Positions 9,995 to 32,011 are shown, counted from the stretch's first letter. The stretch: DNA of 64,000 nt from Dehalococcoidia bacterium (GCA_965249185.1 CBDFLS010000002.1:1933594-1997593); one strand, 5' to 3'. Numbers and translations: made by a program. The notes: a model not told the origin generated them from the letters alone.

Positions 9995-9996
9995 GA

Positions 9997-13988: not shown

Positions 13989-14342
13989 GGCTGTGGGCTC
14001 CGCTGGGTGCGCTTTAGGCAGGGATGATCAAGAGAGACGCCGATGGCGCCAGAGACCATGAAAATGAGGAGCAAGCTGACTGCGATATGGGCCACCCGCG
14101 AGGCTGCGGCAACGGGATGGAAGGGGGCCACGATAACAAATGGCGGGGACGGTGTAAACTTAAGGAGGGCGGTGAAGACGCGTGAGTCGAGGGAGCGGCC
14201 CAGCACGCGCCGCCCCCCGTTGGTCGAGGCAAGCCCGCGGCCATAGGGAACAGTTGGTGGAAGGAGGCTGCGATGGGATTGCTCCACTGGTTGACGCGCT
14301 GAAGGCGCCCTGGTACGTTGCGTAACTGAGCTAATTTAAATT

Positions 14343-15187
14343 GGGTAAAGTCCCGTTTTAGCCACCGGATTAGCTTCGAAGCAGCTTGAACAATGTCTTA
14401 ACCTGTTCTGGTCCCAACAGACGCCGATGATTGTAGCGCCAGACATACTCAGCAAGATAGAGGGGCAGCCGTTCTCGGCGGACTCCCCCTTTGGCTGCCA
14501 GACGCCGCTTGAGATAACCCCAGAAGCCCTCCAAGCCGTTGACGTGGCTCCCTTGCCGATCGCTGAACGCCTGGCTGTGGTCCACAAGCCGGTGGACGTA
14601 GCCCCCCGCTGCGACGCCCGTGTAGCTGGTAAAGGTGTCCGAGCAGACGATGGAGCCACGTTGCACGCGTTGGTGCAGGAGCGGCAGCAGCGTCTTGGCT
14701 TCCACGTTAGGTACCACTTGCGCCCACACCAGGCCACCTCGACACAGGATCCCAAAGACAGCTTGCTTAGTGGTTCCACGGCCCCGCTTCGTGCCCTGAA
14801 CACGCTTTGCCAGGCGCCTGTTGCGCCAGGAACCTCCCAGGTAGGTCTCGTCGACCTCCACCACGCCGGAGAAGACATGGGGAACGTCCCGGACCATGGC
14901 CTGGCGCACCACGATCAGGGCGCGCAGGACTCGCTTTCGCTCCAGGCGGGCCTCCTGGGCAATCACCTCGGCACTCTGCCCCAAGACGAACCAGCGCAAC
15001 AGTCGCCGCCACTCCCCTGGCGACAACCGAAGCGGCAGCGCCCTGGGCACCCACTCGTAGTGGCAGGCTGCACAACGACTCTTACCTCGCCGAATGCTCC
15101 AGCTCTTGGCGTGTTGACATCGAGGGCACCCAATCTTCCGTCCCATGCCACCATTCTCTCACAGGTGGCTGTTTTGGGACTATACCC
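14343..15187 (-). mobile_element. IS1595-family insertion sequence, copy 2 (845 bp), no target-site duplication
   Basis: Same ends as copy 1. The flanks TTTAAATT (14335-14342) and AAGGTAAT (15188-15195) do not match. Confidence 0.9.
14370..15146 (-). CDS. IS1595-family transposase
   Basis: 258 aa. Identical to copy 1 except the C-terminal ...KLLRS (Q257R). Confidence 0.9.
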   Translation of the reverse strand: MGRKIGCPRCQHAKSWSIRRGKSRCAACHYEWVPRALPLRLSPGEWRRLLRWFVLGQSAEVIAQEARLERKRVLRALIVVRQAMVRDVPHVFSGVVEVDETYLGGSWRNRRLAKRVQGTKRGRGTTKQAVFGILCRGGLVWAQVVPNVEAKTLLPLLHQRVQRGSIVCSDTFTSYTGVAAGGYVHRLVDHSQAFSDRQGSHVNGLEGFWGYLKRRLAAKGGVRRERLPLYLAEYVWRYNHRRLLGPEQVKTLFKLLRS

Positions 15188-15791
15188 AAGGTAATTCTAG
15201 TGGATGCCGACCTCCGCAAGCCCTCGCAACACAACATATTTGGACTGGGACGTCAGCATGGGCTGACTAACCTGCTCTTGGGCTCCCTTACGTTAGATGA
15301 AGCTCTGAGGCAGGAAGTTAAAGATGGCCTCACCGTGATTCCCAGCGGTCCTCTACCCCCGGATCCTGCACAAGTCCTCAGACTGCCACAGATGAGGGAG
15401 GTATTGGAGCGGCTGCGAGAGCGGGCGGATTTGGTGATTATCGATTCGGCTCCGCTTCTTGCAGTATCAGAAGCTCTGGTATTACCATCAATGGCAGACG
15501 CAGTCCTCATGGTCATAGATGTGCATGCTACTCGCCGTCAATCTGTTGAACGCGCCGTGGCGGCACTTCGGCAGGCGATATGGAAAGGTGGCGGGTGCAG
15601 TCTTCAATAAGGTCAATGTTAAGGAATCTGAAGCATACTACTACCACTACTATTACGCCCAGGGCTATGGCGAACCTGCTGGCGGTCGGCGCGCAGGGAT
15701 AGCTGGAAGGTTGGCTGGGCTCCGCAAGCTCAATGTTTTCAACAAGCGCCGGCCGCATTCTAAACGGCCTACCGAGATTGCCGCGGAGTGA
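15188..15791 (+). pseudogene. BY-kinase (CpsD/Wzc-type tyrosine autokinase) C-terminal remnant, 5'-truncated and frameshifted
   Basis: Starts at the IS end with KVILVDADLRKP (Walker A'), followed by LVIIDSAPLL (Walker B). The Walker A and Wzz domains are absent. The frame breaks near 15575-15590, and the tail GKVAGAVFNKV...EAYYYHYYYAQGYG (tyrosine cluster) is in another frame. Confidence 0.8.
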
Positions 15792-15954: not shown

Positions 15955-17166
15955 TTGAATGAGATGCAGACACCAAGAGTGATTGCAGGGGTGGTCCCCG
16001 CCCATGGCGGCACGCTGAAGGAATTGCTCTCAGCGGATGATGCGGGGATTCAAACGCTGCGGGATGAAGCGGCTAGGCTACCATCCTGGGAGTTAACCTC
16101 CCGGCAAGTGTGTGATACGGAGTTGCTGCTGAATGGCGGGTTCTCTCCGCTCGAGGGTTTTCTCGGCCGGGAGGACTATGGTTCGGTCTGCGGTGAGATG
16201 CGGCTCGTGGACGGAACTATCTGGCCGATCCCCATAACGCTTGATGTGACCGAAGCGTTCGCGTCGTCTCTCACCAAAGGCGCTCGGGTCACCCTGCGGG
16301 ACCCGGAGGGGGTGGCACTCGCTATATTGACGGTCAGCGATGTGTGGAGGCCGGACTTGCGGGAGGAAGCGAGGCTGGTCTATGGCACCACGGATGAGCT
16401 TCACCCGGGAGTGACCAATCTCTTTCACCATACCGGAACGTTATACGTGGGGGGCCGGTTGGAGGGCCTGGAGCTCCCGGCGCATAGCACCTTTGGGGAG
16501 CTGAGGCACACGCCGGCACAGCTACGGAAATTATTCGATGCGAAGGGTTGGAAGCGGATTGTGGCGTTCCAGACCCGCAATCCGATGCACCGGGCCCATG
16601 TAGAGGTAACGAAACAAGCTGCACGGGAGGCCGAGGCGAATCTGCTCATCCACCCAGTGGTTGGGCAGACCAAGCCCGGCGATGTGGAGTCTTACACTCG
16701 GGTCCGCTGCTATCAGGCCCTGCTCCAGTATTATCCGGAGCAGACGACCGCGCTCAGCTTGCTGCCTCTGGCCATGCGCATGGCCGGGCCCCGGGAGGCG
16801 GTATGGCATGCGATCATTAGGAAGAACTACGGATGCACGCACCTGATCGTGGGGAGAGACCATGCCGGGCCCGGGAATGACAGCCAGGGTAAGCCGTTCT
16901 ACTCGCCCTACGCGGCCCAAGAGCTGTTGGCAATGCATGAGCAGGAGCTGGGCATCAAGCTCGTCTCTTTTGAGGAGATGGTGTACGTGGAGAGCGTGGG
17001 GCAGTATATGGTGCGTTCCCAGGTGCCCGATGGCGCGGAAGTCCTTTCGATCTCCGGCACGGAGCTCCGTTCGCGCCTGGAGCAAGGGACTGAGCTTCCG
17101 GAGTGGTTCACTTATCCAGAGGTGGCTCTAGAGTTGCGCCGCTTATACCCAGCTCGCGGCCAGTAG
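15955..17166 (+). CDS. sat: sulfate adenylyltransferase (ATP sulfurylase)
   Basis: 403 aa. QTRNPMHRAH and GRDHAGPG motifs. TTG start 9 nt after AGGAG. No fused APS-kinase domain. Confidence 0.9.
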   Translation: MNEMQTPRVIAGVVPAHGGTLKELLSADDAGIQTLRDEAARLPSWELTSRQVCDTELLLNGGFSPLEGFLGREDYGSVCGEMRLVDGTIWPIPITLDVTEAFASSLTKGARVTLRDPEGVALAILTVSDVWRPDLREEARLVYGTTDELHPGVTNLFHHTGTLYVGGRLEGLELPAHSTFGELRHTPAQLRKLFDAKGWKRIVAFQTRNPMHRAHVEVTKQAAREAEANLLIHPVVGQTKPGDVESYTRVRCYQALLQYYPEQTTALSLLPLAMRMAGPREAVWHAIIRKNYGCTHLIVGRDHAGPGNDSQGKPFYSPYAAQELLAMHEQELGIKLVSFEEMVYVESVGQYMVRSQVPDGAEVLSISGTELRSRLEQGTELPEWFTYPEVALELRRLYPARGQ

Positions 17167-17536: not shown

Positions 17537-18511
17537 ATGACTAAGACACTTATAACTGGTGGCGCTGGGTTCATCGGCTCTCATCTGTGCGATAGGCTCT
17601 TGGCGATGGGGCATGAGGTTGTTTGTCTGGATAACCTTGACCCCTTTTATGCCCCAGGGGTGAAGCTCGCAAACCTGGCCGAAGCGCGCTCAAACCCCGG
17701 CCTTGAGTTCGTCCACGGGGACGTGATGGATACCGAACTGCTTGACCGCGTATTTGCGCGCGGGCCGGAGCTGGTGATACATCTCGCGGCCCTGGCTGGC
17801 GTCCGCAACTCTTTACTGGACCCGGCCCGGTATGCGCGGGTGAATATCGAGGGGACGGTGAATCTGCTGGAGCGGGCACGGAGCCATGGTGTGGGCCGCT
17901 TCGTCTTCGCTTCCTCCTCATCGGTTTACGGACATTCCGACGGCGGGCCTCTGTCTGAAGACCACCCCGCCCTTGAGCCGGTGTCACCGTATGGTGCGTC
18001 CAAGCGAGCGGGAGAGTTAGTCTGCTGGACCTTTAATCACCTCTCCGGAATGCCCATAGCGGCACTGCGGTTCTTTACGGTCTATGGGCCGAGACAGCGG
18101 CCAGACATGGCCATCCATAAGTTTGCGAAGCTCATGCTCTCGGGTCAGCCGATTCCCGTCTACGGCGATGGCCGCTCGCGCCGGGACTATACTTACGTGG
18201 CGGATATCATAGACGGCATCGTTGCGGCGGCAGAGCATCCCGATGGCTTTCAGATCTTCAACCTCGGAAGCTCGCGGCCCGTTGAACTTTTGGAGGTGAT
18301 CCATCAACTGGGCGCCGCACTTGATGTACAGCCCGAGCTTCAATTCCTCCCAGAGCAGCCGGGCGACGTGAGGTTTACGCTGTCTGACGGCGCTCGATCG
18401 GAGCGAGTCCTCGGCTACAGGCCGCAGGCCTCCATTGAGGAGGGCATCCGCAAATTCGCCGAGTGGTTTAGGCTGCACGGGACGTCCATGGAAGGGGAGC
18501 CGAAACCATGA
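17537..18511 (+). CDS. NAD-dependent epimerase, UDP-glucuronate 4-epimerase-like
   Basis: 324 aa. TGGAGFIGSH, YGASK and RFFTVYGPRQRPDMA motifs typical of the UDP-GlcA 4-epimerase subgroup of extended SDRs. Confidence 0.8.
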   Translation: MTKTLITGGAGFIGSHLCDRLLAMGHEVVCLDNLDPFYAPGVKLANLAEARSNPGLEFVHGDVMDTELLDRVFARGPELVIHLAALAGVRNSLLDPARYARVNIEGTVNLLERARSHGVGRFVFASSSSVYGHSDGGPLSEDHPALEPVSPYGASKRAGELVCWTFNHLSGMPIAALRFFTVYGPRQRPDMAIHKFAKLMLSGQPIPVYGDGRSRRDYTYVADIIDGIVAAAEHPDGFQIFNLGSSRPVELLEVIHQLGAALDVQPELQFLPEQPGDVRFTLSDGARSERVLGYRPQASIEEGIRKFAEWFRLHGTSMEGEPKP

Positions 18512-19845
18512 AGCTCTGCGTCATAGGTGGAGCTGGCTACGTTGGCCTGATCACTGGCGTTGGCTTTGCAAAGCTCGGTCACACCGTTGTAAACTTCGAC
18601 GTGGATGCCGATAAGGTGGCGTCCCTGGCGCGAGGAACGAGCCCCATTTATGAAGTTGGCCTTCAGGAGATGCTCCAGGAGTGTCTCGATTCGGAGCGCT
18701 TGAGCTTCACGACTGATTTAGATGCGGCGGCGCGCGATGCGGAAGCGGTGTTCGTTGCCGTTGGCAGTCCCGCCGGCGAGGATGGCGGCACCGACCTTTC
18801 GCAAGTGAAGAGCGTGGTCACGTCTCTGAGCAAAGTGGCGGCGTCTCAGTCCGTTGTCGTTATCAAGTCCACCGTCCCGGCAGGGACGGTGGACTTGATC
18901 CGCGAAGAGTGGGCGCGGCGCGATGGGCGTTCGGAACTGCACCTCGTGGTAAACCCTGAGTTCTTGCGGGAGGGCCAGGGCCTGAAGGATTTCTTCTACC
19001 CCAGCCGCATTGTTGTGGGCGCCGATTCCGAGTGGGCGCGGCAGGTGATGCGCCGTCTGTACGCTCGGTTCATCGATGGACCGGACGATGGCGAGCCGGA
19101 GATTCCGATGGCCCGTGGTGTGCCCCTGATTGAGACGACGGCCGTTAACGCGCAGATAGTCAAGTACGCGGCTAACGCCTTCTTAGCCACACGGCTCTCT
19201 TTCATCAATGAGATGGCCGGAATCTGCGAGCAGGTGGGAGCGGATATCACCGAGGTGGTGAATGGGCTGGGTTACGATCCCAGGATCGGTTGGGAGTATC
19301 TCCAGGCGGGGATTGGTTTTGGGGGGCCTTGCCTGGAAAAGGACCTGAAGGCCCTTATCCATTTCTCGGGCCGCCACCAGCATGACGCCCGCTTCATGAA
19401 GGCGGTGTTGGACCGCAATGATCGTCAGGTCCAGCATATCGTGGAGAAGATAGTGGAGCTGCTCGGGCCCGAACTCTCCCAGAAGCGTGTGGCCATCCTC
19501 GGCCTCGCCTTCAAGCTGGGGACCAATGATGTCCGCACGTCGCTCTCGCTCCGCATCATGCGGATGCTGCTGGACAGGGGTTGCGTGCTGACCGCTCATG
19601 ACCCCGTGGCGCTGTCGGAGGCTCAATCCCTGCTGCCCGAAGCGCACTACAGCGATGATCTCTATCGTGCTCTGGACGGTGCGGATGCGCTGGTCCTTCT
19701 CACCGATTGGCCTGAGTATGGAGCGCTGGACCTTGAACGAATCGCAGGCTTGATGCGCCAGAAAAATGTGGTGGACGGCCGCAACATGCTGGAGCGGGGC
19801 GCACTGGAGCGTCTGGAGTTTCGGTACCGCGGCGTTGGCCGATGA
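18508..19845 (+). CDS. ugd: UDP-glucose 6-dehydrogenase
   Basis: 445 aa. VIGGAGYVGL, NPEFLREG and GFGGPCLEKD (catalytic Cys) motifs. ATGA overlap with the upstream gene. Confidence 0.9.
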   Translation: MKLCVIGGAGYVGLITGVGFAKLGHTVVNFDVDADKVASLARGTSPIYEVGLQEMLQECLDSERLSFTTDLDAAARDAEAVFVAVGSPAGEDGGTDLSQVKSVVTSLSKVAASQSVVVIKSTVPAGTVDLIREEWARRDGRSELHLVVNPEFLREGQGLKDFFYPSRIVVGADSEWARQVMRRLYARFIDGPDDGEPEIPMARGVPLIETTAVNAQIVKYAANAFLATRLSFINEMAGICEQVGADITEVVNGLGYDPRIGWEYLQAGIGFGGPCLEKDLKALIHFSGRHQHDARFMKAVLDRNDRQVQHIVEKIVELLGPELSQKRVAILGLAFKLGTNDVRTSLSLRIMRMLLDRGCVLTAHDPVALSEAQSLLPEAHYSDDLYRALDGADALVLLTDWPEYGALDLERIAGLMRQKNVVDGRNMLERGALERLEFRYRGVGR

Positions 19846-19890: not shown

Positions 19891-20976
19891 ATGGGCGAGC
19901 TTGGAGTCCTTCTGGCGGGCTTGGGCGGCTTCGGCCGAAACCACCTGCGGGCGTGGAGTGATCTCAAGATTGGGGATGCGCTGTACGTCGCCGAATTGGA
20001 CCCGGCGCTCCATGACGAGTGCCGGGTATTCAATGTTCCCTTAGACCACATATCGACTGATTTCAATCAGCTGCTCCAGAAGGTGGACGTGGTAGACATA
20101 GTCACGCCTTCCACGAGCCACTTTGCCCTGTGCAAGGCCGCCCTTGAAGCGGGGAAAGACGTCTTCGTGGAGAAGCCGATGACGATGACTTCGGAAGAGG
20201 CCCGGGAGCTGGCGTCGCTGGTGCGGCAGAGCGAGCGCGTGCTGCAGGTGGGCTACTACTACCGGTTCCATCCCATCGCGCCGGTCCTGAAGGCCGCGCT
20301 GTCGAGCGGTGAGTTGGGCGACGTGCGCTATATCTCTGGAAACTTTATGGGGTTCAAACGGGCGCGGACGGATGTGGGCGTCACGCATACGGACGCTATC
20401 CACTTCATCGACCTGTTCAACTGGCTGCTGGGCACGCCGCCAAAAGAGGTGTTCGTGGTAGCCCGCGACCACTTCAACCGAGGCCTGGAGGACTGGTCGG
20501 TGGTGCTGCTGGAGTACCCCGGTGGAACGGTGGCCAAGGTGGAGTCCGGCTATATTCAGCCCGGACGATGGAGGGATAAGGTTGTGCCGAACGCCTTCAC
20601 CTCCAAGGAGTTTTTCCTCTGCGGCACTCGTGCTACCGCAGAGGTGGACTTCGAGACGGAATATCTGGTGGTCCACGATGTGCATCACGAGTTTCAGAAC
20701 GGGACGTGGGCGCCGGTGGTGGCCGGCAGCGAGACCCGCAACACCGGCACCGCCACGCCAATTCGGATGATCGGGGCGGAGTTGCAGGACTTCCTGGAGT
20801 GCGTGCGTACTCGTCGGCGTCCCAGTGCGGACGTGGTGGGCAGCGGGGTTGTGCTGGCCCGGATCATGGAGGCGGTCTATCGGTCCGCGGAGGAGCACCT
20901 CCCGGTGTCCCTGGACTGGTCCGACGAGGAGGTACGCGCTCTGGCCGACGCCCCGGTTGGCGGTGTGCCGCGATAG
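19891..20976 (+). CDS. Gfo/Idh/MocA-family oxidoreductase
   Basis: 361 aa from the ATG preceded by GGAGGAGAGGGA. Has the GLGGFGRNH Rossmann N-terminus and EKPM motif. Confidence 0.8.
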   Translation: MGELGVLLAGLGGFGRNHLRAWSDLKIGDALYVAELDPALHDECRVFNVPLDHISTDFNQLLQKVDVVDIVTPSTSHFALCKAALEAGKDVFVEKPMTMTSEEARELASLVRQSERVLQVGYYYRFHPIAPVLKAALSSGELGDVRYISGNFMGFKRARTDVGVTHTDAIHFIDLFNWLLGTPPKEVFVVARDHFNRGLEDWSVVLLEYPGGTVAKVESGYIQPGRWRDKVVPNAFTSKEFFLCGTRATAEVDFETEYLVVHDVHHEFQNGTWAPVVAGSETRNTGTATPIRMIGAELQDFLECVRTRRRPSADVVGSGVVLARIMEAVYRSAEEHLPVSLDWSDEEVRALADAPVGGVPR

Positions 20977-21019
20977 CCTGAGGACCCGGAATAGCCTGAG
21001 GAACTCTAAGGAACGGTCC

Positions 21020-21889
21020 ATGACGCTGAAAGATATCACCGAGAACGACCTGCTCAATAACATTCCTCTAGCCGCCCGCAAGAGTGATGGGGAGCGGTCA
21101 CGGGTGAGGGTGGGCGATGCGGAGTTCGGGGGAGATCGCTTCGTGGTCATCGCCGGGCCGTGTGCCGTCGAGAGCAAAGCGCAGGTGCTGGACATCGCCC
21201 AGCACGTCAAGGAGAGCGGCGCCTCTATCCTCCGAGGCGGCGCCTTTAAGCCCCTAACGTTTCCTTACCGCAGCGAGAAGACCTTTGAGTTGGGTGCGGA
21301 GGGCCTCCGCTACTTGGCGGATGCGCGAGAGGCCAGCGGCCTTCCGGTGGTGACTGAGGTGATGGACGCTCGCGCGATCGAGCTGGTTGCCGGCTTCGCG
21401 GACATGCTCCAGGTAGGGGCCCGGAATATGCAGAATTTTCCTCTGCTGGAGGAGTTGGGGCACGTCGGCAAGCCGGTGCTGCTGAAGCGTCATTTTGGTT
21501 GTAGCGTGAGGGACTGGCTTGGCGCCGCCGAGTACATTCTTTACCACGGCAACTCACAGGTGGTGCTGTGCGAACGGGGTGTTGTCGCTCCTCACACGCA
21601 TCAGGGAACCGCAAGGTTTATCGTCGATATTCAGGCCGTGCTTGCGGTGCATGAGTTCTCGCACTTGCCGGTAATCGTGGACCCCAGCCATGCGACGTTC
21701 AGGCGCGAGTATGTGGCGCCGATTGCCCGGGCCGCCCTGGCGGCGGGGGCCGATGGCATTATTTTGGATGTTCATCCCACGCCGGAGCTAGCCGCGGTGG
21801 ACCCGCTCCAGGCGCTTTCGTACGATGCGTTCGCCCAGTTGATGTCTCAGCTCAGGGGCATTGGTACGGCCGTGGGCCGGGAGGTCTGA
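21020..21889 (+). CDS. divergent DAHP-synthase (type I-beta)/KDO8P-synthase-family aldolase
   Basis: 289 aa from ATG 21020. GPCAVES, QVGARNMQNF and VDPSHA are conserved. However, the loop reads GGAFKPLTFPY where the family has KPRTSPY, ERGVVAPH replaces ERGIRTFE, and DVH replaces EVH. Confidence 0.75.
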   Translation: MTLKDITENDLLNNIPLAARKSDGERSRVRVGDAEFGGDRFVVIAGPCAVESKAQVLDIAQHVKESGASILRGGAFKPLTFPYRSEKTFELGAEGLRYLADAREASGLPVVTEVMDARAIELVAGFADMLQVGARNMQNFPLLEELGHVGKPVLLKRHFGCSVRDWLGAAEYILYHGNSQVVLCERGVVAPHTHQGTARFIVDIQAVLAVHEFSHLPVIVDPSHATFRREYVAPIARAALAAGADGIILDVHPTPELAAVDPLQALSYDAFAQLMSQLRGIGTAVGREV

Positions 21890-21892
21890 GCG

Positions 21893-23020
21893 ATGGCGGT
21901 GCGAGGACGCGCTGGGCAGGGCGCCATAGAGATGGTGCAGCCACACTTGGACAACTCGCTGGACTCTTCAGCGAGCGCCCGTCCCATCGTAGCCGGGATC
22001 ATTGGCGACCGTCCCTCTCTTTATGCTAAGAGCCCTCTGCTCTGGAACGCGGTGTTCCGGGACCTGGGGCTGGATGCGGCATACCTGCCCTTTGACGTTT
22101 CGGCGGAGAATCTGCCGCGGCTGGTGGAGGCGCTTCGGGGGTGTGCCACCTACGTTGGAGGGAACGTGACGGTCCCCTACAAAGTACAGGTGATGGACCT
22201 CCTGGACGAAGTGGACCCGCTAGCCAGGCAGATCGGCGCGGTGAACACCATCAGCCGCACGCGGGACGGCAGGCTGGTGGGGTATAACACCGACGCCACG
22301 GGAGCGGTGGAGTCGCTGGTCAGGAGGATGTCGTGGCAGGAGTGCCCGTTCCTGAAGGGGCTCGCGGGCAAGCGTGTGCTGCTTGTTGGCGCCGGCGGCG
22401 CTGGCCGGGCGGTGGCCTTCGCCATTGCCCAGCAGGTTGGCAAAACAGGGGCTATGTGGATCACCAACCGTTCGGCGGAGCGGGCGCGGGAGCTGGCTGA
22501 AGAGGTCCGCCGTGCCTATGGAGTCGCCCAGGCCCTGAGTGAGGATGAGCTGTCCGATAAGCTCGCTGATGTCGACCTGGTGATCAATGCCTCGACGCGG
22601 GGGCAGGCGGGGGTCCGGCGGCTTCCGGGGGGCCTGGCGACCTGTTTGGAGCCCTACTCGCCGCTGGCGCCCGCGAACCCCGCCACCTTCCAAGCGGACG
22701 AGCAAGCCACGGAGGCCGACTTCTATCGCGCCTGGTACGAGGCCTCGGTGGAGGATATCCATGCCAACACGAAGGCCTCGGCAAATGCCATCCTCGGCTC
22801 CGGGCGGGAGACGGCCTACTTCGACCTCATCTATGCGCCACAGGAGACCACGCTGTTGAGGCAGGCGCGTCTCAGCGGGCGCCCCACGCTCAACGGCAAG
22901 GGCATGAACATCATTCAGGCGGTGGAGGCCTTCGTGCACAGAGTAATGAAGCCCCACCTAGGTGAGGCGGCCGATGGCGCGTACGAGCGGGTCTCGGATG
23001 CCATGGCCGGGGTGTGGTGA
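21893..23020 (+). CDS. shikimate/quinate dehydrogenase-fold protein (AroE-like, extended)
   Basis: 375 aa. NVTVPYK, GAVNT, GYNTD and GAGGAGRAV motifs. SPLLWN stands in place of SP.(M/I)HN. About 45 extra residues sit between the Rossmann core and YFDLIYAPQET. Confidence 0.75.
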   Translation: MAVRGRAGQGAIEMVQPHLDNSLDSSASARPIVAGIIGDRPSLYAKSPLLWNAVFRDLGLDAAYLPFDVSAENLPRLVEALRGCATYVGGNVTVPYKVQVMDLLDEVDPLARQIGAVNTISRTRDGRLVGYNTDATGAVESLVRRMSWQECPFLKGLAGKRVLLVGAGGAGRAVAFAIAQQVGKTGAMWITNRSAERARELAEEVRRAYGVAQALSEDELSDKLADVDLVINASTRGQAGVRRLPGGLATCLEPYSPLAPANPATFQADEQATEADFYRAWYEASVEDIHANTKASANAILGSGRETAYFDLIYAPQETTLLRQARLSGRPTLNGKGMNIIQAVEAFVHRVMKPHLGEAADGAYERVSDAMAGVW

Positions 23021-23128: not shown

Positions 23129-23893
23129 TCAATGAGCGTTGGCGTTGAATTCTACGCGGAATAGCACCCGATTTTTCTTTGCCGCATAGGGTGGTCCTAG
23201 CCAGTGCTCGTTCTCTTCCGGGACGTAAGGGTAGAACGCGAATTGGCTCGTGGCCGGCTGCTGTTCAAAGGAGCTTTGGAGCTGTTCTTTAGGAAGCAGC
23301 GTTCCTGGGCGAGAATCGGGATAAGTCTTAACGGGCTTCTTACCGTTGAGCAGGATACGGGTCTCACCCAGTAGTCGCCGTATGGGTAATCTGGATACAG
23401 CCGAAACAAACTCCTCAGGTCTATCCAGGTGATAGAGAACACCGGCACAGATAGCTATGTCCCAAGATGGTCCAGCTAGGGATGTTTCCCAATCGCTATC
23501 GTGGAAATCCAACAAGCGAAGCTCAATGAGGTGGCGCAACCCACGTTTGCGTGCTACGAAGTCGAGGCTTTTGAGGAACCGTTCGGTTCGGTCGACTGCG
23601 ACAACATGTGCCCCTCTTTTGGCCAGTTCTAGGGTCATGTAGCCATTGGCACAGCCTAGATCCAGGCAGCGGGCCCCGCTCAAATCCTCTGGGAAGTGCA
23701 GTGCCAATTGCTGCCAGAGGAAAGCGGGATAGCGATATGGGATAGGCATGAGTTGGACGCCTGGGTTGACGTTTCCGCTCTCGAAGGTAGTAACTCCGGG
23801 AACAACCTCAATGTCGTGGAACCAGGGCCCCAGCCGACGGAGGCGCCAAAGCAGAAATAGTCGCCTTAGCCTGCCCAATGTTGGTAGATTCAC
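23129..23893 (-). CDS. class I SAM-dependent methyltransferase (DUF1698/CmoB-like)
   Basis: 254 aa. WFHDIEVVPGV, CLDLGCANGY (motif I) and VLYHL motifs. Confidence 0.7.
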   Translation of the reverse strand: MNLPTLGRLRRLFLLWRLRRLGPWFHDIEVVPGVTTFESGNVNPGVQLMPIPYRYPAFLWQQLALHFPEDLSGARCLDLGCANGYMTLELAKRGAHVVAVDRTERFLKSLDFVARKRGLRHLIELRLLDFHDSDWETSLAGPSWDIAICAGVLYHLDRPEEFVSAVSRLPIRRLLGETRILLNGKKPVKTYPDSRPGTLLPKEQLQSSFEQQPATSQFAFYPYVPEENEHWLGPPYAAKKNRVLFRVEFNANAH

Positions 23894-24108
23894 TTGAGTC
23901 CCGTGCAGGTTCGTCCTAGAGGGCTTTCAGAAGAGCGCCTCTTGGTAAATTCACATCAAAAGAGATGGCCCAGCGGTACCCTTTTGGGCCAACGAAAATA
24001 TGTCGGCTAGTAACTGATCGGACCGGATTATACACCTGCCGCCAATGGGACCACCTTGAGTGATTCCAAGGTGAAGTTTGAGGCTGTCGCAGGAACTGAA
24101 TTATTCAA

Positions 24109-24953
24109 GGGTAAAGTCCCGTTTTAGCCACCGGATTAGCTTTGAAGCAGCTTGAACAATGTCTTAACCTGTTCTGGTCCCAACAGACGCCGATGATTGT
24201 AGCGCCAGACATACTCAGCAAGATAGAGGGGCAGCCGTTCTCGGCGGACTCCCCCTTTGGCTGCCAGACGCCGCTTGAGATAACCCCAGAAGCCCTCCAA
24301 GCCGTTGACGTGGCTCCCTTGCCGATCGCTGAACGCCTGGCTGTGGTCCACAAGCCGGTGGACGTAGCCCCCCGCTGCGACGCCCGTGTAGCTGGTAAAG
24401 GTGTCCGAGCAGACGATGGAGCCACGTTGCACGCGTTGGTGCAGGAGCGGCAGCAGCGTCTTGGCTTCCACGTTAGGTACCACTTGCGCCCACACCAGGC
24501 CACCTCGACACAGGATCCCAAAGACAGCTTGCTTAGTGGTTCCACGGCCCCGCTTCGTGCCCTGAACACGCTTTGCCAGGCGCCTGTTGCGCCAGGAACC
24601 TCCCAGGTAGGTCTCGTCGACCTCCACCACGCCGGAGAAGACATGGGGAACGTCCCGGACCATGGCCTGGCGCACCACGATCAGGGCTCGCAGGACTCGC
24701 TTTCGCTCCAGGCGGGCCTCCTGGGCAATCACCTCGGCACTCTGCCCCAAGACGAACCAGCGCAACAGTCGCCGCCACTCCCCTGGCGACAACCGAAGCG
24801 GCAGCGCCCTGGGCACCCACTCGTAGTGGCAGGCTGCACAACGACTCTTACCTCGCCGAATGCTCCAGCTCTTGGCGTGTTGACATCGAGGGCACCCAAT
24901 CTTCCGTCCCATGCCACCATTCTCTCACAGGTGGCTGTTTTGGGACTATACCC
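24109..24953 (-). mobile_element. IS1595-family insertion sequence, copy 3 (845 bp)
   Basis: Same ends as copy 1. Flanks TTATTCAA (24101-24108) and TGATTCAA (24954-24961) match at 7 of 8 positions. Confidence 0.9.
24136..24912 (-). CDS. IS1595-family transposase
   Basis: 258 aa, identical in sequence to copy 1. Confidence 0.9.
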   Translation of the reverse strand: MGRKIGCPRCQHAKSWSIRRGKSRCAACHYEWVPRALPLRLSPGEWRRLLRWFVLGQSAEVIAQEARLERKRVLRALIVVRQAMVRDVPHVFSGVVEVDETYLGGSWRNRRLAKRVQGTKRGRGTTKQAVFGILCRGGLVWAQVVPNVEAKTLLPLLHQRVQRGSIVCSDTFTSYTGVAAGGYVHRLVDHSQAFSDRQGSHVNGLEGFWGYLKRRLAAKGGVRRERLPLYLAEYVWRYNHRRLLGPEQVKTLFKLLQS

Positions 24954-25089
24954 TGATTCAAAATGGGACGGTAATGGTAACACACGCCGTTGAGCTATCC
25001 TGGTTCGCAAGATTTGCCTGCGATTCAGATGTCTTCGCCGACTTGCAGTGGGCTAGCAGTTAGCCCGTTTCGGTTGACAGGATACGAGC

Positions 25090-25761
25090 TTGCCGCTACA
25101 GTTATCGGTGATGCGTTCAAAGATTGAACACAATGGCGGGACTGAGAGCGACTCGTCACGGGAGATGCTCCTTCTCTCGGAGATAGAGCACGCTCCGGAG
25201 ACGAGCCAGCGCCACCTGGCGCTGCGGCTCGGGCTGTCGGTCGGCATGGTGAACCTGCTGCTTCGGAACCTGGCGCGCAAGGGCTACGTGCGCGTCACGC
25301 GAGCCGGCTGGCGGCGCTGGCTGTACGCCATGACGCCGAGCGGCGCCTCGCGCAAGGTCCAGCTTCTGGTGGGATACGTCCGCCGGTTCCTCGGCGACTA
25401 TCAGCGGGTGCGCGGAATGCTGCGAGAACAATTGGCGCCTCTCTCCCTGCACGCGGAGTCGAGAGTCGCGATCTATGGGACCGGTGAGCTTGCGGAGCTC
25501 GTTTACCTGTCGCTAAGGGAGCTCGCGGTGGAGGAGGTGGAGGTCTTCGACACGCGGAGCTCGAACGGACGGAAATTTCTGGGCTTGCCTGTGCGTGATG
25601 TGAGCACACTTCGGCCCGAGGACCATGACAGGGTGGTGATCGCCGTGCTTCCGGAGGCCTCAAGAGGCTACGAAGAGCTCCGGGCCGCGGGCGTTTCTCC
25701 GGAGCGCCTGGTTACGCTCTTCGGTGAGCGCCCGCGGAGAGATGAAGGGATAGCGCATTGA
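25090..25761 (+). CDS. EPS-associated MarR-like winged-helix regulator fused to a Rossmann-like C-terminal domain
   Basis: 223 aa (TTG start; possible later starts). The wHTH region reads SQRHLALRLGLSVGMVNLLLRNLARKGYV. The C-terminal part RVAIYGTGELAELVY...GLPVRDV...DRVVIAV resembles the N-terminal domain of EPS sugar transferases. Confidence 0.65.
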   Translation: MPLQLSVMRSKIEHNGGTESDSSREMLLLSEIEHAPETSQRHLALRLGLSVGMVNLLLRNLARKGYVRVTRAGWRRWLYAMTPSGASRKVQLLVGYVRRFLGDYQRVRGMLREQLAPLSLHAESRVAIYGTGELAELVYLSLRELAVEEVEVFDTRSSNGRKFLGLPVRDVSTLRPEDHDRVVIAVLPEASRGYEELRAAGVSPERLVTLFGERPRRDEGIAH

Positions 25762-25873: not shown

Positions 25874-26905
25874 ATGATGATTCCTGATTTCTTAGCCCGG
25901 CGGAACCCCTACGTTATCGGCGCTTTGGTGGAGAACCACGGCGGAGATGCGCAGCTTGCGCGAGACCTTATCCGTCTCGCGTCCGAAAGCGGCTGTGATG
26001 CGGTGGCACTGCGGCTGAGCACTGTAGATGATTGCTATACCGCCGACTACTTGAGACGGCCGAATACGCTGTGGCCGGAGCGGGGCCGCACCTGGGGCGA
26101 CTACTTACGCTCGTTGGAGCTCGGTCCGGGGGATGTCGGCGCGCTTCGGGATGAGGCACGGGGGCATTTGGACTTTATCGCAGCCCCCTTGGATCTGAAG
26201 GCGTTCCAGTGGTCGGAGGAGTTGGCGCCGGATGCGTTCCAGGTGGAGCCAGCGGTGCTTGGGCACTTGGCGCTCCTGGAGGCGATGGCGGCGACGCGCC
26301 GGCCGCTATTCCTGGTGTGCGGACGCTGCACTGAGCTGGAGCTGTCGAATGCCCTGGAGGCGCTCAAAGATAGTCCGGTAGTGCTGCTCCATACGGTGCA
26401 CGGGGGCGCGGTGTCGTTGAGCGAAACGGCTCTGCCGCTGATGCGAGTGCTGGAGGAGAAGCATGGACTGCCGGTGGGCTATTACGGCCTGGAGCCCGGG
26501 GTGGTGGCCGCGGCCGCGGCGCTGGCTCTCGGCGCCAAGGTGATCGAGAAGCCCTTCACTACGGACCATCGCTTGTCCGGGCCACGACACGCGAGCAGCC
26601 TGGACCGCGACGAGCTGCGCGCGCTGGTGAGCACGCTACGGGCGTTGGCCGGCTCGCTGGCCACCGATGGCCCCCGAGTCCCCTTGCCGGCCGAGCTGGG
26701 GCCGGAAGAGTCCGCGAGGGCCGCCCTGGTAGCGGGGAAGGACCTGGCCGCGGGTGAGGTGCTTCAGCCAGAGATGCTGCTGACGCGACTCGGGTCCTAT
26801 GGCATCAGCCCTCTCCTGCAAAGCCGATTGCTGGGACGACGGCTTGCATACGATGTTGTTGCCGGAGACCCGGTGACTTTCGGTGAGATGCATGCGCCGG
26901 ATTAA
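25874..26905 (+). CDS. NeuB-like (sialic/ulosonic acid synthase family) protein with SAF domain, catalytic motifs degenerate
   Basis: 343 aa. NHGGD N-terminal motif and C-terminal SAF-like LVAGKDLAAGEVL. AVALRL replaces AVKFQ, YYGLEPG replaces SDHT, and IEKPFT replaces IEKHFT. Confidence 0.7.
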   Translation: MMIPDFLARRNPYVIGALVENHGGDAQLARDLIRLASESGCDAVALRLSTVDDCYTADYLRRPNTLWPERGRTWGDYLRSLELGPGDVGALRDEARGHLDFIAAPLDLKAFQWSEELAPDAFQVEPAVLGHLALLEAMAATRRPLFLVCGRCTELELSNALEALKDSPVVLLHTVHGGAVSLSETALPLMRVLEEKHGLPVGYYGLEPGVVAAAAALALGAKVIEKPFTTDHRLSGPRHASSLDRDELRALVSTLRALAGSLATDGPRVPLPAELGPEESARAALVAGKDLAAGEVLQPEMLLTRLGSYGISPLLQSRLLGRRLAYDVVAGDPVTFGEMHAPD

Positions 26906-27014: not shown

Positions 27015-28079
27015 ATGAAAGCGCTCGTTCTCTGTGGTGGAAAGGGGACCCGGCTCCGGCCACTGACCTATGCCATCCCCAAGCAGTTGATTCCCGTGGC
27101 CAACCGGCCCATCGTTGCCTACGTGCTGGGTCACATCGTGGAAGCCGGTATCGACAATGTTGGGGTCATCGTGTCGTCGGAAACCGGCGATCAGACCCGG
27201 GAGACGATCACGCGTCTGTTCCCCCGCCTTCGGGTCACTTACATATTCCAGGAGCAACCGCTGGGCCTCGCACATACCGTAACGGTGGCGCGTTCCTACT
27301 TGGGCGATGATCCTTTCGTGATGTATCTGGGCGACAATCTCATCGGTCAGGGCATTCGAGAATTCATAGACCACTTCCAGCGCTCCTCCGCCGACGCGGT
27401 CATCCTGTTAAAAGAGGTTGGCGATCCCCGGTTGTTTGGCGTGGCCGAGGTCGATGATGGCGGGCGTGTGGTGCGCCTGGTGGAGAAGCCTGACCAGCCG
27501 CCCAGCAATCTGGCGCTGGTGGGCCTCTACGTGTTCTCACCGGCTATCCATGACGCGATCCGGCAGACGAAGCCATCCTGGCGAGGGGAGCTGGAGATAA
27601 CCGACGCGGTCCAGGTATTGCTGGAGACGGGCGGCAACGTTCAGAGCCATGTGCTTGAAGGGTGGTGGCTGGACACTGGGAAGAAGGATGATCTGTTGGC
27701 GGCGAACCGCAGGGTGCTGGACGACTGGACCGACCGTGACATACGCGGGCAGGTGGACGATGAGACGAAGGTGAAGGGGCGCGTGGTGGTGATGGACGGC
27801 GCGGTAGTCCAGGGGAGCGAGATCAGGGGGCCGGCGATCATCGGTACTGGCTCCGTGGTCACCGGCTCGACCGTGGGTCCCTATGCGAGCATCGGCGATG
27901 GTTGCGTCATCACGGACTCGTCGTTGGAATGCAGCGTCGTGCTGGATGGAGTCAGGCTCGAGGGGGTAACCCCGATACAGAATAGCGTTATCGGTCGGCA
28001 TGCCATGGTGCGGGCAAGCCATGACAAGCGCCAAGGGGTGCAGCTCATGATCGGCGACGACGCAGAGGTGCTGGTCTAA
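27015..28079 (+). CDS. rmlA: glucose-1-phosphate thymidylyltransferase, long form with C-terminal left-handed beta-helix
   Basis: 354 aa. LCGGKGTRLRPLTYAIPKQLIPV motif and hexapeptide repeats at the C-terminus. Directly followed by rmlC, rmlB and rmlD. Confidence 0.8.
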   Translation: MKALVLCGGKGTRLRPLTYAIPKQLIPVANRPIVAYVLGHIVEAGIDNVGVIVSSETGDQTRETITRLFPRLRVTYIFQEQPLGLAHTVTVARSYLGDDPFVMYLGDNLIGQGIREFIDHFQRSSADAVILLKEVGDPRLFGVAEVDDGGRVVRLVEKPDQPPSNLALVGLYVFSPAIHDAIRQTKPSWRGELEITDAVQVLLETGGNVQSHVLEGWWLDTGKKDDLLAANRRVLDDWTDRDIRGQVDDETKVKGRVVVMDGAVVQGSEIRGPAIIGTGSVVTGSTVGPYASIGDGCVITDSSLECSVVLDGVRLEGVTPIQNSVIGRHAMVRASHDKRQGVQLMIGDDAEVLV

Positions 28080-29692: not shown

Positions 29693-29693
29693 T

Positions 29694-31988: not shown

Positions 31989-32011
31989 AGAGGGAGGGTC
32001 GGTTCATCGAT

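Follow-up and report, generated by a model that had tools for sequence, protein, structure and literature searches.

A conserved gene cassette with a DAHP-synthase-like aldolase and a shikimate-dehydrogenase-fold protein, likely serving a CMP-activated 3-deoxy-2-ulosonic sugar

Closest described systems

The closest described relatives of the aldolase presented here are the type I-beta DAHP synthases (DAHPS) of the AroF/AroG class, represented by those of P. furiosus (1ZCO), A. pernix (1VS1), and T. maritima (1RZM), with which it shares the (beta/alpha)8 DAHP_synth_1 fold. Like the archaeal enzymes it is an unadorned barrel without a regulatory domain that keeps the PEP and the Cys/His/Asp metal ligands, although its context is one of glycan genes instead of aromatic biosynthesis genes. 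A second system to compare is the Kdo pathway (KdsD, KdsA, KdsC, KdsB, and WaaA), whose condensing enzyme belongs to the same superfamily. The condensation of PEP with an aldose would be common to both, a CTP_transf_3 cytidylyltransferase would likewise take over the product, and several of the loci compared have WaaA-like or KpsS/C-like transferases. However, the aldolase lacks the KANRS loop of KDO8P synthase (KDO8PS) and matches the KDO8PS (KdsA) models weakly (104 bits against cut-offs of 242–314), the cassette has no linked KdsD-like isomerase (SIS isomerase in 1/34 loci) or KdsC-like phosphatase, and its two extra oxidoreductases and small GT2 glycosyltransferase have no Kdo counterpart. 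KDO8P synthases are split into metal-dependent and metal-independent enzymes, and a Cys-to-Asn change in one subtype of our aldolases (see below) parallels this division.

With the nonulosonic acid pathways (NeuB/PseI/LegI plus NeuA/PseF/LegF, followed by Maf or other transferases) the cassette would share a common logic, inferred on its side, of joining PEP to an unphosphorylated sugar, activating the product with CMP and transferring it to capsule, O-antigen, or flagellin. The first of its cytidylyltransferases is closest to PseF, and Maf genes are adjacent in some relatives. In contrast to these pathways, the condensing enzyme is a member of the DAHPS/KDO8PS superfamily and not of the NeuB family, the NeuB-fold protein of the cassette is devoid of both metal histidines, and the core has no conserved dehydratase/aminotransferase/acetyltransferase set (DegT in 7/34 loci).

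The shikimate-dehydrogenase-fold (SDH-like) protein shares its two-domain fold, at a TM of about 0.8 on the target, with AroE, YdiB, quinate dehydrogenase, and 5-ketofructose reductase; with the last of these, the family already contains a sugar reductase. A further precedent is the B. subtilis pair IolG (NAD+) and IolW (NADPH), which turns myo-inositol into scyllo-inositol via a ketone. The cassette also has two nicotinamide-dependent oxidoreductases, one of them of the Gfo/Idh/MocA family (Gfo), linked or fused, which by analogy would fit the oxidation of one ring carbon and its subsequent reduction with inverted stereochemistry. Here, unlike in that pair, the second enzyme has the SDH fold and the substrate would be, by analogy only, a carboxylated pyranose and not inositol.

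Three co-directional genes and their residue patterns

The window, that is, the whole stretch of 64,000 nucleotides analysed from a Dehalococcoidia bacterium, contains on its plus strand a Gfo gene (19891–20976; Pfam GFO_IDH_MocA and its C-terminal domains), a type I-beta DAHPS-like aldolase gene (21020–21889; DAHP_synth_1, E = 7e-60), and an SDH-like gene (21893–23020; Shikimate_dh_N and Shikimate_DH). The trio is separated by gaps of only 43 and 3 nt, a GGAGG-like ribosome-binding site lies before each start codon, and exactly these three products are called as genes in public data. Immediately 5' lie an upstream operon partner of the SDR epimerase/dehydratase family (17537–18511, plus strand; Pfam Epimerase, 225 bits), of UDP-uronate epimerase or decarboxylase type and with NCBIfam matches (GalE, dTDP-glucose dehydratase) only below cut-off, and a UDP-glucose/GDP-mannose dehydrogenase-family gene (UGDH; 18508–19845, plus strand) with all three UDPG_MGDP_dh Pfam domains. 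The same pair precedes the trio in the close relative L005, and a UGDH gene is found before Gfo also in L095, L097, L098, and L103. None of aroB, aroD, or aroK is present among the annotated ORFs of the window. A preliminary description, made from the sequence alone, had claimed this back-to-back arrangement behind UDP-GlcA genes, with the same gaps and no aroB, aroD, or aroK nearby; both claims held (ORF positions and Pfam for the arrangement, annotated ORFs for the missing genes), and the three Pfam families that it proposed for the aldolase and SDH-like proteins were all matched. Homologues carry the names DAHPS and shikimate dehydrogenase in public sources, and annotation pipelines would give these names to two of the trio genes.

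The aldolase is ~50% identical to the A. pernix and P. furiosus DAHPS (E = 1e-79) and exceeds the NCBIfam DAHPS cut-offs (350 vs 335 and 306 vs 268). All motifs quoted beforehand are present (GPCAVES, KPLTFPY, QVGARNMQNF, ERGVVAPH, DPSH, and DVH, as well as SPLLWN in the SDH-like protein). Taking the residue roles in the DAHPS active site from PMC6362186, the PEP ligands R72, K77, A134, R135, K156, and R186 are invariant and the metal site is formed by C48, H224, D250 (Glu to Asp), and D261. The comparison of substrate-binding residues suggested in the preliminary description thus shows the PEP and metal sites kept and the E4P-binding Arg lost: KPRTSPY becomes KPLTFPY, placing L79 at the Arg and F81 at the next Ser, and throughout the family the former is Leu or Met and the latter Phe in 78/78 aldolases. 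Other departures from the type I-beta enzymes are a fixed three-residue insertion (APH) that turns IRTF into xAPHTH (VVAPHTH in the window copy), a Gly to His change after LLKR, and a Gly to Phe change after DPSHxT; H158, H192, H194, F227, P262, and L263 are new invariant residues. The claimed change of ERGIRTFE to ERGVVAPH held only in part, as the ERG arginine, a ligand of the PEP phosphate, is retained and only the following segment is altered. Two subtypes can be distinguished, CD (metal Glu to Asp), to which the window copy belongs, and NE (metal Cys to Asn).

In a neighbour-joining tree the aldolases form one clade separate from 84 canonical I-beta sequences. The family occurs with its fixed motif changes in several phyla, and other members of these phyla have canonical KPRTSPY enzymes (e.g., Nitrospira MAG L009, Acidobacteriota L015 and L016). 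While the residue pattern and the monophyly are shown, the role is inferred without biochemical data: the aldolase would be a PEP-dependent 3-deoxy-2-ulosonate synthase taking an aldose without an E4P-type phosphate. Residual DAHPS activity is not excluded, because the protein exceeds the DAHPS cut-offs. Moreover, since three new invariant histidines could bind an anionic group, possibly holding phosphate or carboxylate in a novel manner, the case for an unphosphorylated acceptor depends chiefly on the loss of the Arg and the absence of a linked phosphatase.

The SDH-like protein falls below the aroE cut-off (188 vs 200). As in shikimate/quinate dehydrogenases, the catalytic pair (K97 and D134), the Asn/Tyr/Gln contacts (N118, Y314, and Q342), and GxGGxG are invariant, and the NRS/T NADP motif and most shikimate/quinate-contacting positions are retained. 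It differs from them in the carboxylate loop, where S-x-S-P becomes A-[KR]-S-P-x-x-W-N in 48/48 family members (the first Ser replaced by Ala, with a new invariant Lys/Arg and Trp), in N- and C-terminal helices, and in an insertion formerly put at ~45 residues that we correct to about 50 (a 71-residue stretch vs 21 in M. jannaschii AroE), modelled with high confidence by AlphaFold as a beta-hairpin followed in the description by a long helix. It also differs in being always linked to the aldolase, often to Gfo, and sometimes fused to the latter. The AlphaFold model (pLDDT 94) has the four enzymes of this fold named above as its top structural matches, which confirms the fold; homologues bear Chloroflexi and Deltaproteobacteria names. 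By analogy, it may carry out NADP(H)-dependent reduction or oxidation at C4 of the ulosonate, the position equivalent to quinate C3. The best solved relatives of Gfo are the DgpA C-glycoside 3-oxidases and 7bvj, and its best NCBIfam match, UDP-GlcNAc 3-dehydrogenase, is far under the cut-off; its putative role is the NAD(P)-dependent oxidation of a ring hydroxyl to a ketone, either on the ulosonate or on its precursor.

The cassette in the window and in other genomes

Within 7 kb of the aldolase (30 non-redundant loci) we found a cytidylyltransferase in 27/30, the SDH-like gene, next to the aldolase, in 27/30, Gfo in 23/30, and the small GT2 in 23/30. Around 47 canonical DAHPS, on the other hand, cytidylyltransferase, Gfo, and small GT2 were all absent, and an SDH gene appeared in six cases, as an ordinary aroE. 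These counts come from metagenome contigs chosen by motif, and the loci are not phylogenetically independent. Nitrospira sp. Kam-Ns4a and an Acidobacteria MAG have the same gene order. Gfo and the SDH-like protein are fused in L119 (734 aa, Pfam-confirmed), L090, and L093, the small GT2 and a CTP_transf_3 domain are fused in 15 loci, and in L116–L118 a second Gfo-family enzyme substitutes for the SDH-like gene. No HAD phosphatase was found near the aldolase in any of 34 loci. Homologues of the Kdo transferase WaaA-N occur in L007, L116–L118, and L123, in L006 the aldolase/SDH-like pair has a KpsS/C-like gene as its neighbour, and in Nitrospira the cassette is bordered by genes for flagellin, FlgK, FliW, and Maf, the last of which is also adjacent in L115. 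No conserved ligase or acyltransferase was detected in the cassette core of the loci compared. The co-occurrence of the trio beside glycan genes in relatives, raised in the preliminary description, is therefore found. Its reading as something other than aromatic amino-acid synthesis is supported by the motifs fixed in a monophyletic family and by the linkage against the 47 canonical loci. Its proposal of an unusual 3-deoxy-ulosonic sugar tied to CMP-sugar synthetases is supported by the cytidylyltransferase linkage and by the Kdo-transferase-like, KpsS/C-like, and Maf neighbours, the product not being established. No published account of the cassette appeared in the full-text literature searched, which supports its claim that no pathway of such composition has been described.

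The remaining members lie downstream in the window, on the plus strand. A MarR/EPS-type winged-helix regulator (25090–25761; Pfam HTH_24/MarR, NCBIfam MarR_EPS below cut-off) heads the cassette in relatives: in L001 and L003/L004 a homologous HTH immediately precedes Gfo, and in L005 one lies further upstream. It is followed by a NeuB-fold gene with a SAF domain (25874–26905; Pfam NeuB and SAF) whose product scores 141 bits for NeuB (cut-off 400) and 109 for PseI (cut-off 340). Both metal-binding histidines of NeuB/PseI are missing (opposite His215 and His236 of N. meningitidis NeuB the alignment shows GYYGLEPG and EKP), and the copies linked to the cassette in L001, L003, L005, L091, L095, L098, L101, L103, and L115 have lost them too, whereas unlinked NeuB copies retain SDH and EKH. 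This corrects the earlier picture of a "NeuB-like" gene, whose product probably does not function as a nonulosonate synthase. The gene adjoins 17/19 CD-type aldolases vs 1/14 of the NE type.

A core member further along is the small soluble GT-A protein (GT2, 226 aa; 30605–31285; Pfam Glycos_transf_2), a generic GT-A fold in its AlphaFold model (pLDDT 86), which has LSGHCIP in place of a DxD motif and FFHNANS, EDRxW, and HxHGI as further invariant motifs; identity is 58–72% over the best 120 homologues, with 1033 homologues at E <= 1e-10. Next comes CTa (31248–31988; likely start ATG 31278), a CTP_transf_3 protein of the CMP-ulosonate/nonulosonate synthetase type with PseF (closest) and KdsB as nearest NCBIfam models, each below cut-off, and with a canonical P-loop (IIPARGGSKGIPRKN) conserved across its family. 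CTb (31979–32704; likely start ATG 32012) is a second, divergent CTP_transf_3 paralogue (E = 4e-8) with NeuA and CMP-Neu5Ac synthetase as best solved relatives. It represents the type of domain fused to the small GT2 elsewhere, and its family P-loop is altered to IIP[VI]RGxD...G[RK]PL, reading IIAVRS in the window copy. At a greater distance, the product of 46452–48020 (plus strand; TIGR04396/BFO_1060 family, weak Capsule_synth similarity, all NCBIfam and Pfam matches below cut-off) is possibly an acid-sugar transferase, an inference; homologues adjoin the cassette in L093, L095, L096, L103, L109, L114, and L119.

In the window this cassette is split. A SAM-dependent methyltransferase gene on the minus strand (23129–23893; Pfam Methyltransf_11/31/12), not part of the conserved core, and an IS1595-family insertion sequence (24100–24954, minus strand; repeat families D4 and I1-I6, DDE_Tnp_IS1595 on the ORF 24136–24912), one of five copies in the window, divide the trio from the rest. 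In L001, L003, and L005 the SDH-like gene is directly followed by the NeuB-fold gene, without the methyltransferase. The dTDP-rhamnose genes rmlA-rmlC-rmlB-rmlD (27015–30557, plus strand; Pfam NTP_transferase, dTDP_sugar_isom, GDP_Man_Dehyd, and RmlD_sub_bind) in turn interrupt the stretch from the NeuB-fold gene to the small GT2, with none at the matching position in those three relatives. At least four other transposase genes are present in the 64 kb, and a promoter and terminator scan of the window gave nothing above chance.

Proposed pathway and rival explanations

The trio likely supplies the core enzymes with which a conserved cassette makes and CMP-activates a 3-deoxy-2-ulosonic (Kdo/sialic-acid-like) sugar for surface glycans, outside the shikimate pathway. 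The two kinds of fusion, the Kdo-transferase-like and Maf neighbours, and the absence of a linked phosphatase, all of them shown, point to a CMP-3-deoxy-ulosonic-acid pathway with two-step redox tailoring. In such a pathway the DAHPS-derived aldolase would join PEP to an aldose without the phosphate handle of E4P, giving a free 3-deoxy-2-ulosonate, and therefore no phosphatase step would be required. Gfo and the SDH-fold enzyme would then act sequentially on the pyranose ring, with a hydroxyl turned into a ketone by one of them and the ketone reduced with NADPH by its partner, for a net epimerisation; C4 (equivalent to quinate C3 and hexopyranoside C3) is the most likely site, by structural analogy only, and in some relatives the ketone may pass to a DegT aminotransferase. 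The PseF/KdsB-like cytidylyltransferase would yield the CMP-sugar, the small GT2 and CTb may act during or just after activation in a reaction that remains unknown, and Kdo-/nonulosonate-type transferases would place the sugar on capsule or O-antigen-like polymers, or Maf on flagellin in some relatives. Reaction chemistry, redox site, step order, and sugar identity are all inferred, with no biochemical or glycan-composition data, and neither the chain length (heptulosonic or octulosonic) nor the acceptor aldose and product is established.

That these are ordinary aroF/aroG and aroE genes lying by chance in a polysaccharide island is very unlikely. The scores and identity of the aldolase, an SDH-like protein nearly at the aroE cut-off with its catalytic Lys/Asp, and the names of public homologues favour it, but the E4P-binding Arg is lost in all family members with further active-site positions fixed anew, the aldolases are a distinct clade, most loci show a linkage to cytidylyltransferase, Gfo, and GT2 that canonical loci lack, aroB, aroD, and aroK are absent nearby, and the same phyla have canonical enzymes. 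It is also improbable that the aldolase and oxidoreductases make a keto-acid-derived substituent or precursor decorating another sugar, e.g., the nonulosonate of a true NeuB nearby or elsewhere. In L116 and L088 the pair does have next to it a complete neuB-neuC-cytidylyltransferase set whose NeuB keeps the canonical histidines, many loci have two cytidylyltransferase-type domains and only one intact synthase, and methyltransferases, radical-SAM enzymes, and 2OG oxygenases are common neighbours. Yet NE-type loci have aldolase, cytidylyltransferase, and small GT2 nearly always without NeuB, the core has no conserved ligase or acyltransferase, and Kdo-type transferases, which take 8-carbon ulosonates, adjoin the pair.

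A Kdo8P/DAHP-like route, with a phosphorylated or anionic acceptor held by the new histidines and an unlinked phosphatase, which would make the aldolase in effect another KdsA-like enzyme serving a Kdo isomer, seems unlikely as well. Histidines 158, 192, and 194 line the remodelled acceptor side, transferases resembling WaaA and KpsS/C typically belong to Kdo chemistry, and free aldoses are scarce in cells; against it, the phosphate-binding Arg and its neighbouring Ser have both become hydrophobic, phosphatase and isomerase are essentially unlinked in a comparison where the Kdo pathway requires KdsC and KdsD, and the KDO8PS match is weak. Least credible of these last three is that the trio of this genome is a decaying remnant, severed from its partners by IS activity, in a pathway no longer working. 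The abundant transposases, the split by the IS copy and methyltransferase from regulator and NeuB-fold gene, the interruption of the downstream half by rml genes, and the unusual P-loop of CTb would agree with it. However, the three ORFs are full length with all family-invariant residues intact and good ribosome-binding sites, the trio is tightly packed behind epimerase and UGDH as in L005, and all remaining cassette members are at most 12 kb away on the same strand.

Against the CMP-3-deoxy-ulosonic-acid pathway that we prefer counts that the roles of the small GT2, CTb, and the histidine-less NeuB-fold protein are unexplained within it. The cassette itself is widespread and, in the literature searched, undescribed, and two of its genes would pass under the names of aromatic amino-acid enzymes.

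The gene trio and the residues of its aldolase

Three genes packed on the forward strand and identified with Pfam encode a Gfo/Idh/MocA oxidoreductase (361 aa, 19891-20976), a DAHP_synth_1-domain protein (289 aa, 21020-21889) and a protein with Shikimate_dh_N and Shikimate_DH domains (375 aa, 21893-23020). The gaps between them are 43 and 3 nt, and a GGAGG-like ribosome-binding site precedes each start. This compact arrangement, and the aldolase and shikimate-dehydrogenase-like (SDH-like) motifs quoted in the preliminary description, all held: ORFs, Pfam domains and public gene calls (which hold exactly these three products) agree, and every motif was found in the sequence. An SDR epimerase (17537-18511, forward strand) and a UDP-glucose dehydrogenase (UGDH; 18508-19845, forward strand) lie upstream of the trio. 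A plasmid blastn search gave nothing beyond weak aroF-like matches.

By descent the aldolase is a type I-beta DAHP synthase (DAHPS, EC 2.5.1.54). It is ~50% identical to the enzymes of A. pernix and P. furiosus (phmmer E = 1e-79 to 1VS1), its (beta/alpha)8 DAHP_synth_1 domain scores 203 bits in Pfam, and it exceeds the NCBIfam DAHPS cut-offs NF006421 (350 vs 335) and TIGR01361 (306 vs 268). Annotation pipelines will therefore label it DAHPS, and its homologues indeed carry DAHPS names in public data. The KDO8P synthase (KdsA) models are far from being satisfied (TIGR01362, 104 vs 314; NF003543, 104 vs 242), whereas from DAHPS it differs in missing one defining feature, the loop binding erythrose 4-phosphate (E4P).

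We aligned 78 members of the aldolase family with 85 canonical sequences, taking the functional assignments of residues in type I-beta enzymes from PMC6362186. All PEP ligands (R72, K77, A134, R135, K156, and R186) are kept and are invariant in the 78 members. The metal site of the window enzyme keeps C48, H224, and D261, with D250 where canonical enzymes have Glu. At the acceptor side, KPLTFPY replaces KPRT(S): the Arg, an E4P-binding residue (PMC6362186), is Leu or Met in 78/78 members and the adjacent Ser is Phe in just as many, against Arg in 85/85 and Ser in 82/85 canonical sequences. In the T. maritima complex this Arg binds the E4P phosphate. Further changes are Gly to His after LLKR (75/78), IRTF to xAPHTH through a three-residue insertion, Gly to Phe after DPSHxT, and Gly-x to Pro-Leu following the last metal Asp; the two His of the insertion and the last two replacements are found in all 78. 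The donor half-site is conserved, and the acceptor half-site has been rebuilt and then held constant. Judging from sequence alone, such fixed remodelling would be the signature of a new substrate and not of decay.

In a neighbour-joining tree all variant aldolases fall in one clade, which divides into two subtypes distinguished by metal-site residues. Subtype CD, including the window aldolase, retains the metal Cys and has Asp in place of Glu, and subtype NE (related loci L121-L166, ~40% of variant aldolases) has Asn in place of the metal Cys and retains Glu. A Cys-to-Asn switch divides metal-dependent from metal-independent KDO8P synthases; to our knowledge none is known on the DAHPS branch.

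SDH-like protein and other cassette members

The SDH-like protein contains Shikimate_dh_N plus an NAD(P)-binding domain, has the Lys/Asp pair of the catalytic site, and falls just under the aroE equivalog TIGR00507 (188 vs cut-off 200) and under the cut-offs of all other aroE models. Scored over 48 family members, Lys97 and Asp134 (catalytic), Asn118, Tyr314, Gln342, and GxGGxG are invariant. The carboxylate loop is A-[KR]-S-P-x-[LI]-W-N (A-K-S-P-L-L-W-N in the window) as opposed to S-x-S-P-x-x-H-N in aroE, the first Ser being Ala in 48/48. Most members (39/48) carry a long insertion, predicted by an AlphaFold model (pLDDT 94) to form a beta-hairpin and a long helix. The top structural matches were AroE, YdiB, quinate dehydrogenase and 5-ketofructose reductase, the latter a sugar reductase with the same fold. 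At the sequence level this is a distinct, conserved subfamily that matches aroE neither in score nor in carboxylate loop.

The gene at 25874-26905 combines a NeuB barrel with a SAF domain (Pfam, 120 and 24 bits), under the equivalog cut-offs of TIGR03569 (141 vs 400) and TIGR03586 (109 vs 340). It lacks both metal His: in the alignment, GYYGLEPG and EKP stand where N. meningitidis NeuB has His215 and His236. The same loss, with SDH changed to LEP, DNE, or DRS and EKH to EKP, EKA, or EKT, is seen in cassette-linked orthologues from relative or metagenome loci (L001, L003, L005, L091, L095, L098, L101, L103, and L115); these residues are retained in the genuine NeuB copies that the same loci carry apart from the cassette. 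Because both metal-binding histidines are missing, the protein is unlikely to be a second PEP-condensing synthase; it might be a pseudo-enzyme, or its NeuB barrel might have taken on a new function. It is also unevenly distributed, lying beside 17/19 CD-type aldolases and 1/14 NE-type ones.

Of the two cytidylyltransferase genes, CTa (31248-31988; CTP_transf_3, Pfam 74 bits) has the loop IIPARGGSKGIPRKN, tested with the pattern PARGGSKGxPxKN and conserved in the family, and is under the PseF and KdsB equivalog cut-offs. The second paralogue, CTb (31979-32704), has an altered P-loop and represents the domain found fused to the small GT2. This small GT2 (30605-31285) has a confirmed but generic GT-A fold, the fold search giving generic GT-A matches only, and is without a DxD motif: that position reads S-G-H in 39/39 members, followed by Cys. 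Its invariant motifs are LSGHCIP, FFHNANS, EDRxW, and, near the C-terminus, HxHGI. Over the best 120 homologues identity is 58-72%, and the ~60-70% shared among these closest relatives is unusual for a glycosyltransferase. Fusions of the small GT2 with CTP_transf_3 (445-485 aa) occur in 15 loci (e.g., in the related loci L161, 6877-8334, and L142, 9757-11097). Conceivably the small GT2 and the CTb-type domain form a complex passing a labile CMP-sugar straight to the first transferase, an idea for which there is no supporting test.

Gene neighbourhoods and island architecture

Close-homologue look-ups recovered the same gene order in Nitrospira sp. Kam-Ns4a, an Acidobacteria MAG and a 1.1-Mb metagenome contig: regulator, Gfo, aldolase, SDH-like, NeuB-fold, small GT2, and one or two CTP_transf_3 genes. 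A motif-restricted metagenome scan added 80 further variant loci. A scan of the genome collection with the full-length family alignment was dominated by the shared GARNMQNF motif and returned canonical KPRTSPY enzymes only, present in other members of the same phyla; these 80 canonical loci served as control. Neighbours were counted within 7 kb, for loci flanked on each side by at least 4 kb and non-redundant at 90% identity. It must be kept in mind that the variant loci are metagenome contigs picked by motif. A cytidylyltransferase was a neighbour in 27/30 variant loci vs 0/47 canonical ones, a Gfo in 23/30 vs 0/47, the small GT2 in 23/30 vs 0/47, and the NeuB-fold gene in 16/30 vs 0/47. The SDH-like gene was present in 27/30, whereas 6/47 canonical loci had an ordinary aroE. 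These neighbourhoods are probably the evidence that decides between a glycan and an aromatic-pathway reading.

Variations on the cassette were also found. Gfo and SDH-like are a single polypeptide (~730 aa) in L119 (6370-8574, confirmed with Pfam), L090 (4234-6426), L093 (6518-8707), and related loci. Three others (L116, 9354-10352; L117; L118) have no SDH-like gene and instead carry a second, distant Gfo/Idh/MocA gene after the aldolase, which may be a non-orthologous replacement of the second redox step. Among 34 variant loci, a HAD phosphatase was linked to the aldolase in none and a SIS isomerase in one, so a linked KdsC/KdsD-type pathway is lacking; a DegT aminotransferase was linked in seven. 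Near the cassette, relatives encode homologues of WaaA-N (Kdo transferase), a KpsS/C-like gene and TIGR04396/BFO_1060-like transferases. The whole cassette of Nitrospira sp. Kam-Ns4a (L001, OZ224218.1:2117374-2138240) sits inside a flagellar locus, preceded by FlgK, flagellin, CsrA, FliW, and PilZ and followed by a 1174-aa methyltransferase-TPR-MptE(Maf) protein. This gene context seems to indicate a flagellin glycosylation island, whose sugar probably decorates flagellin.

In the window, the glycan island starts near 14 kb, where GC falls from ~0.69 to ~0.60 (0.68-0.70 in the high-GC flank, 0.55-0.63 in the island). Five near-identical copies (98-100%) of an IS1595-family element are found at 3721-4606, 14309-15194, 24100-24954, 41465-42317, and 52284-53134, and the island has several other transposases. 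The direct copies at 14309-15194 and 24100-24954 bracket ~9 kb holding ATP sulfurylase, epimerase, UGDH, the trio, and a reverse-strand methyltransferase, a block that could be a composite transposon or a rearrangement unit. The order in a close relative (L005) is regulator, NusG-like, UGDH, epimerase, Gfo, aldolase, SDH-like, NeuB-fold, GT2, CTa, and CTb. The window differs in three respects: two direct IS copies enclose everything from the ATP sulfurylase gene through the SDH-like gene together with the reverse-strand methyltransferase, the regulator directly precedes the NeuB-fold gene, and rmlACBD is inserted ahead of the GT2. Every cassette ORF in the window is intact. A promoter and terminator scan of the window gave nothing above chance, and the window holds no tRNA gene.

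Several other genes of the window deserve mention. The ATP sulfurylase gene heading the island segment (15955-17166, PUA_2 and ATP-sulfurylase domains), beside which no APS kinase was noted, is possibly tied to glycan sulfation; in L161 the ORF after the SDH-like gene resembles a sulfotransferase. A full NDP-heptose set occupies 34807-37883 (HldE-kinase-like PfkB, GmhA-like SIS, GmhB-like HAD, and sugar-1-phosphate nucleotidyltransferase), and SIS, HAD, and GHMP kinase genes are also found downstream of the cassette in L005. Within 42591-48020 and 55103-63178 there are a pyruvyl transferase, a Wzx-like flippase, a TIGR04396/BFO_1060-type putative acid-sugar transferase, GT2 and GT4 genes, a NeuC/WecB-like 2-epimerase (59678-61174), and an initiating Bac_transf (62471-63178); as inferred from sequence alone, this remainder of the island would be a Wzx/Wzy-type heteropolysaccharide locus. 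In the high-GC flank, a fused transaldolase-phosphoglucose isomerase ORF (10771-13506, reverse strand, 911 aa) lies beside G6PD (7569-9365), 6PGD-like (9086-10216), and GlmS (4892-6739) genes, all on the reverse strand.

Proposed pathway, alternatives and significance

Taken together, the cassette is likely to encode a CMP-ulosonate glycan pathway, as opposed to aromatic biosynthesis, although there are no biochemical data and both the identity and the chain length of the sugar remain open. At the sequence level the model is supported by an aldolase that keeps its PEP ligands and has a rebuilt acceptor pocket, by its obligate linkage to two NAD(P) oxidoreductases and a canonical-looking CMP-acid-sugar synthetase, and by the surrounding glycan-transfer genes. 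The aldolase would condense PEP with an aldose without an E4P-type phosphate into a free 3-deoxy-2-ulosonate, and such an unphosphorylated product would account for the pathway doing without a phosphatase. Since the anomeric hydroxyl at C2 is the one used in CMP activation, the keto group at C2 has to be preserved, and the oxidoreductases would therefore act elsewhere on the ring. A pyranose 3-deoxy-ulosonate would resemble quinate, with a carboxylate on a tertiary carbinol carbon, an adjoining methylene and then hydroxylated carbons; by this analogy the SDH-fold enzyme would address C4 of the ulosonate, the same ring position as the hexopyranoside C3 that the nearest Gfo relatives oxidise. 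Working on the same carbon, the two dehydrogenases, which are linked or fused, may perform an oxidation and then a stereo-inverting reduction. Inositol epimerisation by IolG/IolW is a two-dehydrogenase precedent. Where DegT is present, amination of the ketone is a possible alternative. Resting on analogy, this specific C4 epimerisation is a step we consider less likely than not.

An alternative is that the aldolase makes DAHP from PEP and E4P and feeds aromatic biosynthesis. Its DAHPS-level scores are in line with this, but the gene context speaks against it, an inference made without enzyme data. A two-sugar model, with two synthases and two synthetases, was dropped since the cassette NeuB-fold protein has no metal His and NE-type loci combine two cytidylyltransferase domains with only one synthase. 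We also rejected reduction of the C2 keto group by the SDH-like enzyme, because the anomeric centre at C2 is required for CMP activation and a cytidylyltransferase is linked in 27/30 loci. The same applies to a carbocycle route (aminoshikimate or cyclitol), as no dehydroquinate-synthase-like cyclase appeared in any annotated neighbourhood. The CMP-ulosonate reading remains the one we prefer.

Compared with the Kdo and nonulosonate routes, the pathway logic is alike, although the enzyme set fits neither. The product probably belongs to a known kind, PEP-derived, CMP-activated acid sugars, made by a new set of enzymes. No description of the cassette was found in the full-text literature searched. 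Unassigned CMP-linked keto acids have already appeared in recent mass-spectrometry surveys (bioRxiv 10.64898/2026.04.20.719630), and the SugarBase preprint reports unassigned CMP-keto acids without mentioning the cassette genes. A bolder reading, which as a joint claim we consider as liable to fail as to hold, is that of an unrecognised acid sugar; alongside Kdo and the nonulosonates, it would make a third biosynthetic class among the CMP-activated 3-deoxy-ulosonic acids. Its synthase would have evolved from DAHP synthase to accept an unphosphorylated aldose, and the stereochemistry of its ring would be determined by an enzyme of the shikimate-dehydrogenase fold taken over from aromatic metabolism. 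The NE subtype would comprise the first metal-independent (Cys-to-Asn) enzymes of the DAHPS branch, and the sugar would be carried on capsules, O-antigen-like polymers, and flagellins of Nitrospirota, Acidobacteriota, Chloroflexota, and other environmental phyla.

In public genome and metagenome data, hundreds of homologues of the aldolase and SDH-like genes, including the closest 120 of each, are unnamed or called DAHP synthase or shikimate dehydrogenase. As a result, steps of the aromatic pathway that are perhaps absent at the locus may be attributed to these organisms in metabolic reconstructions, and a surface-glycan pathway overlooked. The cassette is a defined gene set, directly expressible and assayable. 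If the proposed chemistry is true, it would give the DAHPS/KDO8PS superfamily a new acceptor class, the shikimate-dehydrogenase fold a new job as a sugar-acid ring oxidoreductase, and these bacteria a new CMP-sugar.
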